Source: an uncultured Eggerthellaceae bacterium
GTDB taxonomy: Bacteria > Actinomycetota > Coriobacteriia > Coriobacteriales > Eggerthellaceae
Direction of reading: 5' to 3'
Length of the DNA: 64,000 bases
Assembly (NCBI GenBank): GCA_910580205.1
Contig: CAJTVP010000004.1
Location: 1,519-65,518 of the forward strand
Made by a program: the position numbers and the translations under genes
Shown here: positions 35,300 through 41,669 of the stretch, piece by piece
Layout of the letters: every line of letters starts with the position of its first letter
Numbering within the stretch: the stretch's first letter is position 1
Notes under the pieces: model-generated
What the model was told of the DNA's origin: nothing
The model's input: the letters and a program-made list of their open reading frames with translations, nothing else
The model's database searches: none

Positions 35300-35579
35300 G
35301 GAGCATCCTTCCTGAAAAGCTGATTTTAAGATTCTGTACTACCAAGCTTACATCATCAGCTCTCGTTCGGCTTGTATATCGCCATCCATGACGAGAAGAA
35401 AAAAGGAAAGACAATCATCGAACCGGGACTTAGAATGAAAAGTCTGCCAAATGAGGCGATCATAAGAGAGGTTAAGAAGCGGACGTTCTCCGTATCCTCT
35501 GCTGAAAAGCTGCTTTTCATCAACAAATACGGTGAGGTCATTGACATCAAATATGTGTCTCTTTAGTGTCTTTCTTGAT

Positions 35580-35630
35580 AAAGCGCCAGAAAGGTACGTT
35601 AGCTACCTGCTCGGGCGCTTTCTCATTTCT
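35580..35630. terminator. Long imperfect hairpin with T-rich tail (candidate terminator)
   Basis: AAAGCGCCAG..AGGTA-CGTTAGC-TACCT..CGGGCGCTTT followed by CTCATTTCT. The reverse strand also gives TTTAT after the stem. Confidence 0.35.
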
Positions 35631-35868
35631 GTAAAACGTCCAAACGGTGCATATTGAACCTACTTCGGGCGCTTTGCATTGTCTGCCCTAAACGGAGCAG
35701 GATGAGCACGGACGTCTTCGGCGGTTGTGGTGTCAAGGAATATCCGCTCGACAGTTGGAAAGGCTCACGAGAATCGGCAGATGATCGGTTCGCAAAGTAT
35801 GTGAGAATCACCGCGCTGTGTGATCGCGCCCATTTACCTCGTCTCTTCGGGTGCAATGTCAAAAGTCA

Positions 35869-37872
35869 TTAGTGGTGACGCCAGTTTGGACATCCTGTTC
35901 CTTTTTGTAGATGAGCTGGGTGTGCTTTCCAAATATTTCCACACACTTTGCAACGAACCTTTATTTTCGTTCTCGATGTTTGATATTCTTCTAGAAGCTC
36001 AATATCGGGATTATTCAATTCGACTCTTTCTTTGAACTCTGTAGGTGAAACTCTGCGCTTTAGGCCTCTATTGCGCTTCGAGCATGTGGGGCAACCTTTT
36101 GATTGCAAGACCCTATTTGGACGGGCGCGCCATATATTTCCGCAGTTAGCGCACCGAAACCTAATCTCAGTATTGCCATGAGTATAGTTTTCAAGCGCTT
36201 CAATATCGGGATGTGTTTGTCGGAGTTCCTTCATGAAATAGTCATGAGTCTTTGTTTGCTTTTTCGCTCTAGTTTTATTTGCGCATTTCGGGCAATCGTG
36301 TCCCTGAAGAAGGTTCTGTGGTGTTGCAGTCCATTCATGCGCACACACCCGGCACCTTGCTTCTATCTTCGTTAGGCGATCGACATATCGTCCTACAATC
36401 TCTATCGTTGAGCTAACATCGGCCATTGCTTCTACAAATTCGTCATGAGACATGCGCTTTGAGTACCTTAATGCATTTGCAATGATTTCCTTCCATTGCG
36501 CTTCCTTAATATCGGGCTTTAGATCTGGATTGCAGAGGAGAAGAATCTTGCTGACTATCTCTTTCAATGTTTTATATCCCGATTCTTCGGCAAGTGAGCC
36601 ACTATATAGAAAGAAGTCCTTTTCCTGTGCAGCTTCAATGGTGGAAATAGGTACAGTGTCGTAAATGACGATGAGGCGGATTCCTTTAGAGTGACAGATC
36701 TCCTTTTTCTTTTTATCTTCGGCAAGCTTGTCCTTATGCCAAAACCAAGCGCCTGGTTCTATGGCAATCTGGTATTCAGGGATATAGATATCGAGCTCTC
36801 GTCCAATGGTCTTTTTATCGCGGGATACAACTTTTCCCTTACCTAATACATATTCAAGCGCAAAGAAAAGGAATTGCTCCATAAATGATGTTCCGGATAT
36901 CGCGCATCTCGGACAACCGCTTCGAGTTAATAATGACTGAGGAGCAGCTATCCATTTATTGTCACAAATCTTGCAATGGAACTCCAATTTCGTATGGCTG
37001 TTTACATACTTACCCAACGGTTCAATATTTGGATTAACTTGATTTAGCTCCTTAATAAAATCATCATGCGATTTACTCAGCATTTGTGCAATCTTTTCTT
37101 TGCGGCATCCGGGACAACCAGAGGATCTTAGTAAATCAACAGGAGCCTTTTTCCAATTACTGTTGCAAACACGGCAATAACAATCCATCGGCGTAGCTGA
37201 ATCAATATATTCTCCGTGAATCTCAAGAGTGGGAAACTTTTCTGCAGCCATATGAAAAAAACGTTCGGCTCTTTTCTTTTTCATATCCCTTTTGCGGCAT
37301 AAGGAGCAATGGCAGTTCTTCTCAAGTGCAGATGCAATAGAAGTCCACTCATGTCCGCATACCCCGCAACGACACGATATTCCATCATGCGCAGTAATAT
37401 ATTCACTCAACAATTCGATATTAGGGTTTATGACATGGATTCTATTTGAAAACTCTTCATGCCTGATAGGTGTTCTTCCTCGCATTTTTTTTCTTGCGCA
37501 GAGAGGGCAACCATGCCCTTTTCTGAGCGTGCTCGGATTTGCATCCCATTCGTTGTTACAGATTTCACATCTACAAAGAATTTTATGCTTCGTATCTTGA
37601 TACATCCCCAATAAAGTCACATCTGGAAGAACTCCTTTTATCTCCGCTTCAAACTCCTCATGCGACTTCTTGCTATTACGATATCCTGAACAATCAATAC
37701 AACCAGCACCGTGAAGCAAATTGCCTGCATTAGCGCTCCAGATACGATTGCATTTACTGCATTGCACTTTAACGTGTTTTTGAACGCCTTTGTATAATCC
37801 TAAGATCTTGATACTGGGGTTGACCTCTTTCATCTCTGCAACAAACTGATCTTGCGTTCTCTTAAGCGCCAT
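35869..37872 (-). CDS. Eight-fold zinc-ribbon repeat protein (DUF4379-like modules) with central Vsr/DUF559-like PD-(D/E)xK nuclease domain
   Basis: 667-aa ORF behind a strong AGGAG RBS. CxxC...(G)CPxC pairs at aa 38/61, 102/125, 169/192, 233/256, 300/323, 507/530, 574/597 and 641/664, with a period of 64-67 aa. Core at aa 325-405: SFMEQFL...ELDIYIPEYQIAIEPGAWFWH...KGIRLIVIYD. Confidence 0.75.
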   Translation of the reverse strand: MALKRTQDQFVAEMKEVNPSIKILGLYKGVQKHVKVQCSKCNRIWSANAGNLLHGAGCIDCSGYRNSKKSHEEFEAEIKGVLPDVTLLGMYQDTKHKILCRCEICNNEWDANPSTLRKGHGCPLCARKKMRGRTPIRHEEFSNRIHVINPNIELLSEYITAHDGISCRCGVCGHEWTSIASALEKNCHCSLCRKRDMKKKRAERFFHMAAEKFPTLEIHGEYIDSATPMDCYCRVCNSNWKKAPVDLLRSSGCPGCRKEKIAQMLSKSHDDFIKELNQVNPNIEPLGKYVNSHTKLEFHCKICDNKWIAAPQSLLTRSGCPRCAISGTSFMEQFLFFALEYVLGKGKVVSRDKKTIGRELDIYIPEYQIAIEPGAWFWHKDKLAEDKKKKEICHSKGIRLIVIYDTVPISTIEAAQEKDFFLYSGSLAEESGYKTLKEIVSKILLLCNPDLKPDIKEAQWKEIIANALRYSKRMSHDEFVEAMADVSSTIEIVGRYVDRLTKIEARCRVCAHEWTATPQNLLQGHDCPKCANKTRAKKQTKTHDYFMKELRQTHPDIEALENYTHGNTEIRFRCANCGNIWRARPNRVLQSKGCPTCSKRNRGLKRRVSPTEFKERVELNNPDIELLEEYQTSRTKIKVRCKVCGNIWKAHPAHLQKGTGCPNWRHH

Positions 37873-38000
37873 ACATCGACTCCTACATTTATTGATTCAA
37901 GGCGTAATCATAAGACAATTTTGAGTAAATTGAGTATTCTCTACAAGACCGTCTCTGTTGGGTCTTATCAGAGTTCTAACAAATTGAAAGAGGATTTATG

Positions 38001-38145
38001 CCGATCATACTAGACCCAAAAACAGACCCAAAACGTGATTCTGTCCCCCAGGAATCAAAAAGGACAGGAGCGAAAATAACTCCTGGCCTCGGCATTCAAA
38101 TGGCGGGATGTACGAGACTTGAACTCGCGACCTCCGACGTGACAG
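38001..38145. repeat. Direct repeat copy A (tRNA-Asp 3' part + terminator-like flank), partner of 41492..41638
   Basis: 38101-38145 is identical (45/45) to 41594-41638. 38001-38100 has about 8 mismatches and 1 indel versus 41492-41593. Weaker similarity extends about 40 nt further left. Confidence 0.85.
38101..38145 (-). pseudogene. 3' 45-nt fragment of tRNA-Asp (anticodon loop to CCA), att scar
   Basis: Identity to the intact tRNA breaks exactly at the 5' edge of the anticodon loop (CTGTCAC). The upstream sequence cannot form the anticodon stem. Confidence 0.85.
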
Positions 38146-40543: not shown

Positions 40544-40618
40544 GAAGTCCCCAAACTGCCCCGAACGGATAAACTATCCTGGTTATCTTTTTACAATTAA
40601 GCGCACCTTATGGGCTAT

Positions 40619-41275
40619 TTAACTCTTGGTTTCCATCCTGTCACGCATATCGCTCAGGATCTCGCCTTTATACGAGAAATATGCAGGTCCTTGCCTTGAT
40701 ATGTCATCAGCAAACAAGGATTCAGCTAATGCGGACAATGTCATGGTTTGACCGTTGTGTTCGACATGCCTGTCGTCGACAACTGTTGCAATGACTCTTT
40801 TATCCTTTACAAAGACCACTTCCTCGCCAGCATCAACACCTACCATGCTGAACTTGAATGGTGGCCTGCGCTTACTGACAGCCTCAGCAACCATTTCGTC
40901 TTCGACCTCTTCTTTGGTCGGCTTCCAACGCTTTAGGTTCGCTTCTGTGCCAGAGATTCTCGCAATAGCTTCGAGAAGATCAAATGCAGCTTCAGGAGTC
41001 ATAGCAAAAAACTCCCGAACTCGGGTTTTGCCTTTGTATTCTTCAATAGTATGCAGATCGGGATTAAGGTCATCTATTAACTTGTGCAGAGATTTATCGG
41101 TAAGTTTAGAAGTAACGGAATAAGTAGCATAAACGCGAAATGCGAATGGTACGGCAGATGACGCATTTAGCTGGCTCAGTCTCTTCTCGACATCAATCGC
41201 AAAACCGATTTTTACATAATCAGGAAAGCTTGGATTGGTAAAGATATAGATGTAGCCTGATTTCTCTTTCGTCAT
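40619..41275 (-). CDS. T5orf172 / GIY-YIG superfamily nuclease-domain protein with small C-terminal domain
   Basis: GYIYIFTNPSFPDYVKIGFA...KRLSQLN...VPFAF...REFF matches the T5orf172 (MUG113) pattern. C-terminal PPFKFSMVGVDAGEEVVFVKD...HNGQTMTLSALAESL module. Confidence 0.8.
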   Translation of the reverse strand: MTKEKSGYIYIFTNPSFPDYVKIGFAIDVEKRLSQLNASSAVPFAFRVYATYSVTSKLTDKSLHKLIDDLNPDLHTIEEYKGKTRVREFFAMTPEAAFDLLEAIARISGTEANLKRWKPTKEEVEDEMVAEAVSKRRPPFKFSMVGVDAGEEVVFVKDKRVIATVVDDRHVEHNGQTMTLSALAESLFADDISRQGPAYFSYKGEILSDMRDRMETKS

Positions 41276-41491
41276 TATTGTCTGCCTATCTATTTATCTA
41301 AAAATGCCACCGTGAACTATGTAATCTCGATGTAAGACTAACCCTTATTTTATTACACGTAGAAATCACAGCCACTCAATGTAGGTCATTCTTCCTCGAG
41401 CATTCCCGCACCATCAAGTATCTCATTGTTTGGTGAGATCTCCGATGGGTCTCATCAGAACCCTAACGAACCGGGAGTTGTCTGACTTATT

Positions 41492-41638
41492 CCGATCATA
41501 GCAGACCCAAAAACAGACCCAAAATGTGATTTTGTCCCCCAGGAATCAAAAAAGGCCAGGAGCGAAAATGGCTCTTGGCCTCGGCATTCAAATGGCGGGA
41601 TGTACGAGACTTGAACTCGCGACCTCCGACGTGACAGG
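41492..41638. repeat. Direct repeat copy B (island arm + 3' 45 nt of intact tRNA-Asp)
   Basis: See copy A. Confidence 0.85.
41545..41580 (-). terminator. Rho-independent terminator downstream of tRNA-Asp
   Basis: Minus strand reads GGCCAAGAGC-CATTTTC-GCTCCTGGCC followed by TTTTTTGATT. A diverged copy exists at about 38052-38087. Confidence 0.65.
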
Positions 41639-41669
41639 CCGGCGCTCTAACCAACTGAGCTAACACCCC
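41594..41669 (-). tRNA. tRNA-Asp (anticodon GTC)
   Basis: Reverse complement GGGGTGTTAGCTCAGTTGGTTAGAGCGCCGGCCTGTCACGTCGGAGGTCGCGAGTTCAAGTCTCGTACATCCCGCCA folds as a cloverleaf: 7-bp acceptor stem, CTGTCAC anticodon loop, encoded CCA. Confidence 0.9.

Follow-up and report, generated by a model that had tools for sequence, protein, structure and literature searches.

The 64,000-nucleotide stretch of DNA analysed here (positions 1,519 to 65,518 of contig CAJTVP010000004.1, assembly GCA_910580205.1; hereafter the window) comes from an uncultured rodent-gut bacterium, and it carries behind the 3′ end of its tRNA-Asp gene a low-G+C tract (35300-41592) composed of two segments, Y next to the tRNA and X further inward. 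We consider it probable that this tract was built by successive integrase-type insertions at tRNA-Asp, with Y resembling a cis-mobilizable element (CIME), X being the remnant of a related predecessor, and both carrying defence cargo. The island at tRNA-Asp is a known kind of genomic island, and a well preserved one.

The host is placed as Eggerthellaceae-like through its closest MnmA relatives, which in a scan of Genome Taxonomy Database (GTDB) genomes are Eggerthellaceae metagenome-assembled genomes (MAGs) with 57-59% identity; no MnmA relative at 60-100% identity emerged from that scan or from a search of 5.8 billion proteins. Exact-protein look-ups led to the same species only, with the arrangement unchanged, and the gene order is repeated both in an NCBI MAG (contig CATKXT010000012.1) and in metagenomic Logan contigs of rat, mouse and faecal origin. 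Comparison loci in other genomes and contigs are designated by L-numbers, with L001-L003 the closest MnmA relatives, and the tRNA 3′ end was surveyed in metagenomes by an exact 45-mer search of contigs, which returned 83 loci.

The case for insertion begins with the tRNA gene. ARAGORN places the intact tRNA-Asp(GTC) at 41593..41669 on the minus strand (67.5 bits against the Rfam tRNA model) and detects no other tRNA in the 64 kb; an earlier note on this DNA had recognised the gene but started it one base short, at 41594. The last 45 nt of the gene (tRNA nt 33-77; 41593-41637, minus strand) recur unchanged and in direct orientation at 38101..38145 (minus strand), and the first nucleotide of this displaced 3′ fragment is the opening base of the anticodon loop, CTGTCAC. 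In our reading the former would be the attL core, supplied by cassette Y, and the latter the attR core of Y. The earlier note had described the 45-nt copy and its limit at the anticodon loop as we find them, but had underestimated how far the identity extends outward, since the exact block measures 62 nt (38084-38145 = 41576-41637). Its hand count of 8 mismatches and 1 indel in the 100 nt past the repeat is reproduced exactly (91% identity); overall, the repeat is 93.4% identical over 150 nt, and homology is recognisable, while weakening, to about 200 nt. A hairpin resembling a terminator comes after each copy (−18.6 and −18.7 kcal/mol, with z near −2.7), and neither 34300-35900 nor the rest of the window contains the fragment a third time, not even in degenerate form. 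The fall in G+C noted previously is equally clear, at 0.423 in 35300-41592 versus 0.624 in the remaining window, and it extends to third codon positions (GC3), with values of 0.35-0.43 in the four island genes versus 0.70-0.83 in mtaB, the GyrI-like gene, mnmA and the ABC gene. Indeed, the proposal that the repeat is the signature of a tyrosine-integrase crossover in the anticodon loop is supported by the comparison loci, as the same breakpoint occurs in L001, in L002/L003 and in 14 clear metagenome fragments.

Other taxa often have complete tRNA-Asp genes in tandem (L117, L131, L181 and others), and a repeat of this kind could in principle stem from a tandem tRNA-gene duplication or from misassembly. 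The sequence itself rules this out: the copy consists of nt 33-77 only, without nt 1-32, and lies 3.5 kb away with foreign DNA between, and ARAGORN calls a single tRNA. Nor does the X/Y junction stem from misassembly, because independent assemblies span it, among them a 3174-nt metagenome contig that bridges 36259-39432 with zero differences.

Segment Y occupies 38146-41637 (3,492 bp), and its genes, none of them an integrase, lie within 38146-41592. It is bounded as a tRNA island is, by intact tDNA on one side and a displaced direct 3′ fragment on the other, and it retains both att cores, both arms and identical 18-nt doublets. The proximal (P′) arm (41435..41592, minus strand) has homologous modules in L166, L185, L159 and L002/L003; it comprises a predicted terminator hairpin with a T-run (41552-41582, minus strand) and an 11-nt-spaced doublet, TTTTGGGTCTG TTTTTGGGTCTG (41501-41526, minus strand, with the 18-mer at 41505-41522), after which comes the block ATGATCGGAAT. 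Both copies of the tRNA end in the window carry such a module of about 105-150 nt past the CCA end, in the order hairpin, spacer, doublet and block. The distal (P) arm (38146..38400, minus strand) contains the 18-mer TTGGGTCTGTTTTTGGGT at 38378-38395, AAACGKC repeats and a TACCTGTTCAGA block that is common to cassette E1 of L002/L003. The 18-mer is identical on the two arms of Y, and its P-arm copy lies 233-250 nt before the displaced fragment.

The nature of these arm sequences can be narrowed. The tRNA is the sole Rfam match, and the module of Y was therefore rejected as a known RNA. A role of the 18-mer as a general operator or promoter was also rejected, as in E1 of L002 it lies downstream of two convergent genes; because the E1 doublets sit at the 3′ ends of these genes, the doublets are not promoter elements. 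Y and L002-E1 each carry the doublets on the P arm and again on the P′ arm, and by analogy we interpret the Y doublets as putative arm-type integrase binding sites. Analogous doublets (GGTGCACAC, twice) are present on both arms of a 14.5-kb integrase-bearing element in L127/L170, and arm repeats were found in L194 and L195 (CGGGGAC, three times) and in L119 (AAAGTGGCTAA, four times). As a separate observation, L127 contains at about 14250-14340, in the flank of its 14.5-kb element, a second, inverted tRNA-Asp 3′ fragment, past the displaced fragment and its terminator.

The sequence shows that Y was inserted into tRNA-Asp through a site-specific crossover in the anticodon loop, and that it supplied its own tRNA nt 33-77 together with a P′ arm of about 150 nt, which now complete the live tRNA. 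The earlier 3′ half was pushed 3.5 kb downstream to 38101-38145, behind the P arm of Y. The target site appears to have been occupied before Y arrived, because the displaced half precedes a second P′ arm that is 93% identical to that of Y; it would already have held the related cassette X, whose distal arm and original fragment would since have gone. The recombinase was probably a tyrosine integrase with an arm-binding domain recognising the 11-nt-spaced doublet TTGGGTCTGTTTTTGGGT. Homologous recombination could have produced a similar arrangement, with the tRNA and its 150-nt flank serving as portable homology for RecA, whether through one crossover with a circularised fragment or two crossovers following DNA uptake, and no integrase involved at this step. 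The repeat is long enough for RecA (150 nt at 93%, with 62 nt exact), and the window encodes no site-specific recombinase. Yet identity stops at the first anticodon-loop base here as in all other fragments, which a chromosomal donor would not be expected to produce, and Y possesses a conserved distal arm that homology-driven entry would not need; we therefore hold this route to be very unlikely.

Crossover at this position is not peculiar to the window. L001 has two extra tRNA 3′ halves starting with CTGTCAC, L002 and L003 have one apiece, and the 83 metagenome loci include, besides the 14 clear displaced fragments, two more ambiguous ones. Tyrosine integrases (PF00589) adjoin the same 45-nt core in L194, L195, L127/L170, L148 and L119, lying just downstream of the intact tRNA in the first three and just upstream of the fragment in the last two. 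Since integrases adjoin the core in several loci, integrase-mediated anticodon-loop crossover at tRNA-Asp is a recurrent, real process. Homologues of the P′ module stand behind tRNA-Asp or a fragment of it in L166, L185, L159 and L002/L003, with 70-85% identity and different cargo each time. Cassette E1 of L002/L003, for example, carries a PvuRts1I-like SRA nuclease, a 356-aa protein and a Sel1-repeat protein, all unrelated to the cargo of Y, and yet shares with Y its P arm, including the doublet and other conserved blocks that precede its own fragment.

Locus L185 is particularly informative. Its upstream context is PBP2 and RodA, and its fragment matches the tRNA of the window at 45 of 45 positions, whereas the resident tRNA-Asp differs at at least 5 positions. 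Because the fragment matches the window and not the resident tRNA, fragment and module travel with the element, as its P′ arm, rather than being an inherited flank. Two further features of L185 were noted in passing. The differences between resident tRNA and fragment are compensatory and lie in the anticodon stem and T arm, and at 4367-5166 there is a minimal cassette of 0.68 kb, with only an MNT-HEPN pair between intact tRNA-Asp and displaced fragment.

Segment X is far less complete. Its proximal (P′) arm, the second copy of the module (37946..38100, minus strand), is 93% identical to that of Y over 150 nt and has the corresponding hairpin (38060-38090), doublet (38010-38034) and 18-mer (38014-38031), all on the minus strand. 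X keeps this arm and a single gene, and has no distal arm or terminal tRNA fragment. Its low-G+C non-coding tail (35300..35868) lacks an att repeat, a P arm and any remnant of an integrase, and a degenerate attR of X was rejected as a candidate, as local alignments were no better than those of shuffled sequence. The left edge of X is therefore set by composition, which changes at about 35250-35300, because neither a distal arm nor a terminal fragment marks it. Judging from the arm that survives, X is the apparent stump of an earlier related cassette and not a bounded island. Thus, of the earlier proposal that two related elements were inserted in succession, the part concerning Y, a complete element that entered an occupied site, stands, and the description of X as a bounded island does not.

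An incomplete X invites the thought that only Y was inserted, that 37946-38145 is the native tRNA end with its terminator, and that X is an old resident low-G+C gene, such as a free-standing homing-endonuclease gene with an insertion event of its own. The missing distal att site of X would fit this, as would its 667-aa protein, which belongs to families of phage homing-endonuclease type, and the module of L159, which abuts high-G+C chromosomal genes. We nevertheless think it unlikely, given that the module occurs in L185 in a different context (PBP2-RodA), with a fragment that mismatches the resident tRNA, that the innermost flank in the genus of L001/L002 is not the module, and that 70-79% intergenic identity across genera whose MnmA proteins are less than 60% identical points to a mobile origin.

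How Y and X moved is a separate question. As the earlier note had maintained, no recombinase open reading frame (ORF) is visible: no ORF of the 64-kb window contains the tyrosine-recombinase box-II motif, tblastn with five integrases that use the same tRNA-Asp site gave no hit or remnant in the window, and no island gene is PF00589-like. Its further conclusion, that both elements had lost their integrases and were fixed in the chromosome, is not supported as it was put, because Y keeps its arms and doublets and these arms recur in another genus. For Y, with its intact ends, the possibility that it may still be recombinable in trans is, on sequence grounds, at least as well supported as that of a dead relic. 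We lean slightly towards cassettes moved by a trans-acting integrase, from a helper with the same tRNA-Asp core, over cassettes that lost integrases of their own.

The case for loss deserves equal attention. It is quite conceivable, if somewhat short of an even chance, that X and Y were once autonomous islands whose integrases were deleted and that they persist as immobile relics because of their cargo. Integration, decay and accretion form the accepted route to CIMEs (PMC5704250), and degenerated elements, as well as stray parts of tRNAs, are also known from Tycheposon islands (bioRxiv 10.1101/2020.12.28.424599). Integrase-bearing elements do exist at this core, and in Y the EcsC-like gene has the same position and orientation as the integrase in L148 and L119. 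Decay is also visible, in X without its attR, in L209 without a distal fragment and in the frameshifted X gene of some strains. What speaks against loss is that no pseudogene trace remains, and that the two complete cassettes with Y-type arms, Y and L002-E1, both lack an integrase while both arms and their doublets are intact. In addition, about 90 loci yielded no integrase-bearing parent with Y-type arms, as against five with other arms. One might go further and speculate that gut Eggerthellaceae harbour a family of small integrase-less defence cassettes, each made up of a tRNA-Asp 3′ half, conserved P and P′ arms with arm-type doublets and exchangeable cargo, and shuffled and stacked at tRNA-Asp by a tyrosine integrase acting in trans from a helper element or the host, much like integron cassettes, a proposal that we put forward only tentatively and consider doubtful.

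The cargo of both segments is, by protein family, most likely devoted to anti-phage defence. Nearest the tRNA, Y encodes a 218-aa T5orf172 protein (40619..41275, minus strand; Pfam PF10544, 1e-12), a GIY-YIG nuclease superfamily member (PMC8263062) with 1356 homologues, which the PADLOC model PDLC05043 (PDC-S57, 1.3e-90) matches over residues 5-216 of 218; PDC-S57 is a candidate defence family only. In L209, a low-G+C tract starting at a tRNA-Asp 3′ end has an 89% identical homologue at its inner edge; no distal fragment and no integrase were found there. The third gene of Y (38550..39614, plus strand) encodes the EcsC-family protein of 354 aa (Pfam PF12787, 2e-21), with a partial match to PADLOC PDC-S29 (1e-10).

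Between them lies a gene for a 279-aa protein of a rare family (39704..40543, minus strand; phrog_28161, 2e-22), which has 18 homologues in the 5.8 billion proteins and matches no Pfam (HEPN families included), NCBIfam or PADLOC model. An R-S-x-A-V-H (Rx4H) motif, R235-x4-H240, is invariant across 15 sequences and falls in a helical C-terminal domain of the AlphaFold2 (AF2) model (pLDDT 91.5), and one homologue sits in a Pycsar/HigBA-like defence island. The closest homologue (78%) was observed in L196-L199, a Firmicutes-like low-G+C genome, beside DUF4325 and SocA_Panacea genes; its presence in Firmicutes-like contigs indicates an inter-phylum spread of the family. A conserved pairing of the T5orf172 and 279-aa genes was considered and rejected, as the 78% homologue has an unrelated 219-aa neighbour and the 279-aa gene is missing beside the 89% T5orf172 homologue. 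In a rat-gut strain (Logan SRR14167427) the 279-aa gene is broken at about 40120, where contigs of 26 kb and 1.7 kb run into unrelated, higher-G+C sequence, which implies that 24 kb or more was inserted; L083 (1487-1734) is the comparison locus for this break.

The gene of X (35869..37872, minus strand) encodes the 667-aa protein, with repeated treble-clef zinc ribbons (DUF4379/CapR) and a nuclease-like core (PF14311, 1e-31; PF21817, 7.5e-28). The protein falls in phage 'HNH/homing endonuclease' PHROG families (phrog_559, 1e-108; phrog_681, 1.5e-78) and has tblastn matches in 532 phage records. In mouse-metagenome strains an extra T after 37484 splits the gene into 138 and 548 aa, and it is thus a pseudogene in part of the population. 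Across the loci compared, the genes at tRNA-Asp include MNT-HEPN, GmrSD, AbiH, PvuRts1I-like, T5orf172 and zinc-ribbon nuclease genes. On this predicted gene content, the tRNA-Asp locus is a tRNA-anchored defence hotspot, in related genera too.

Several observations weigh against successive insertion of mobile, defensive cassettes. An integrase matching TGGGTCT-type arms was found nowhere in our searches, and the reading of the doublets as arm sites is for this reason one of analogy. Assembled contigs from eight metagenome runs (rat, mouse and faecal), mapped onto 33000-43500, contained no convincing excision circle or restored attB of Y, a result that also favours integrase loss, and every contig of the same species has X and Y, at a depth similar to that of the flanks. 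X is recognised as an integrated element from its P′ arm and composition, because it has no distal att site. With regard to cargo, PDC-S57 and PDC-S29 are candidate defence families, and the 279-aa protein is HEPN-like by its Rx4H motif without significant structural support: the best match of its model in the PDB (Foldseek) had an E value of 0.13, not significant, with HEPN proteins only at ranks 8 and 14.

Searches for mobile forms outside the chromosome were likewise negative. Two odd joints among the mapped contigs (38146>41592 and 38147>38081) were set aside, as their sides of 30-36 nt fit tandem tRNA-Asp genes of other organisms. A reconstructed attP retrieved tRNA genes as its only hits in phage and plasmid collections, and neither the 45-mer nor a 24-mer from the tRNA end had a hit in scans of viral contigs. 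The 18-mer gave 10 hits in viral contigs, nine of them within ORFs and one intergenic, near a tRNA-Ser and in the opposite arrangement. This last, in a low-G+C phage contig of IMG/VR (L103, 8039-8067), is an identical 24-nt TTTTGGGTCTGTTTTTGGGTCTG located 185 nt from the tRNA-Ser at a prophage end, and may reflect coincidence or a shared protein-binding motif.

The island is flanked on the tRNA side by mnmA (41726..42865, minus strand), and the order mnmA-tRNA-Asp is kept in L001-L003; a promoter-like site 5′ of the tRNA (TTGTCC-17-TATAAT, 41687..41715, minus strand) matches the consensus at 10 of 12 positions in a scan, which is weak evidence. On the other side is a GyrI-like gene of native composition (34649..35299, minus strand; GC3 0.705). 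Between it and mtaB, the stretch 34440-34606 contains an imperfect inverted repeat (34479-34506 and 34538-34565), is covered 2-4 times as deeply as its flanks in several metagenomes and has matches of about 90% in other contigs; it looks like a multi-copy intergenic element of the repetitive extragenic palindromic (REP) or miniature inverted-repeat transposable element (MITE) type.

An att-flanked cassette in tandem with a decayed older neighbour is not unprecedented. CIMEs and their tandem accretion are reviewed in PMC5704250 for elements related to ICESt1 and ICESt3 of Streptococcus thermophilus (Pavlovic, 2004; Bellanger, 2011). Y fits the definition of a CIME because attL and attR are kept and integration genes are absent; as in CIMEs, it is flanked by att sites, lacks integration and transfer genes, and stands in tandem with a decayed neighbour at a tRNA 3′ end. 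X is not a CIME, because only its P′ arm is kept. Our cassettes differ from CIMEs in being 0.7-3.5 kb long, in having no detected relative among integrative and conjugative elements (ICEs) or integrative and mobilizable elements (IMEs) and in having arms that are conserved across genera with unrelated cargo, in an uncultured gut lineage of Coriobacteriia.

The island may also be compared with those of the Islander collection. In that collection (PMC4383910, with Williams, 2002, cited there), anticodon-centred attP sites form site class A, the commonest class, and 125 tandem arrays are known. The regenerated tRNA, the direct displaced 3′ fragment, the breakpoint in the anticodon loop, the foreign composition and the tandem arrangement are all shared with Islander islands. 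Y thus has the anticodon-centred site of such islands and no integrase gene, and X has no second fragment. Since Islander requires an integrase gene for each island and the cassettes described here contain none, they are invisible to its algorithm. This matters because finders that require an integrase miss such cassettes, which at this conserved hotspot hold most of the candidate anti-phage genes.

Tycheposons of Prochlorococcus (bioRxiv 10.1101/2020.12.28.424599) offer a further parallel, in that repeated integration at a single tRNA pushes older elements inward, remnants accumulate, and the cargo is adaptive or defensive. Tycheposons are defined by recombinase and replication modules of their own, whereas none are present here. 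With defence hotspots rich in PADLOC candidates the island has in common its nuclease-rich cargo, and at this locus neighbouring genera carry genes of the PvuRts1I-like, MNT-HEPN, GmrSD and AbiH kinds. The difference is that the units described here are bounded at the nucleotide level by att sites, which are missing from most defence hotspots. These base-exact boundaries make clean candidates for defence assays of the PDC-S57 protein, the Rx4H protein and the EcsC-like protein. Should the conserved arms prove active, the cassettes would show defence genes moving between gut Coriobacteriia without a recombinase of their own.

Finally, by analogy only, the cassettes recall those of integrons, being small units of promiscuous cargo, devoid of a recombinase and stacked with the newest by the anchor. 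An integron itself was rejected, as the 64 kb contain no integrase and gave no Rfam attC hit. Unlike in integrons, there is no adjacent integrase or attI, and the sites are tRNA halves with lambda-like arms and not folded attC. If mobilisation in trans proves true, the cassettes at tRNA-Asp would constitute an integron-like system built on lambda-type att sites.

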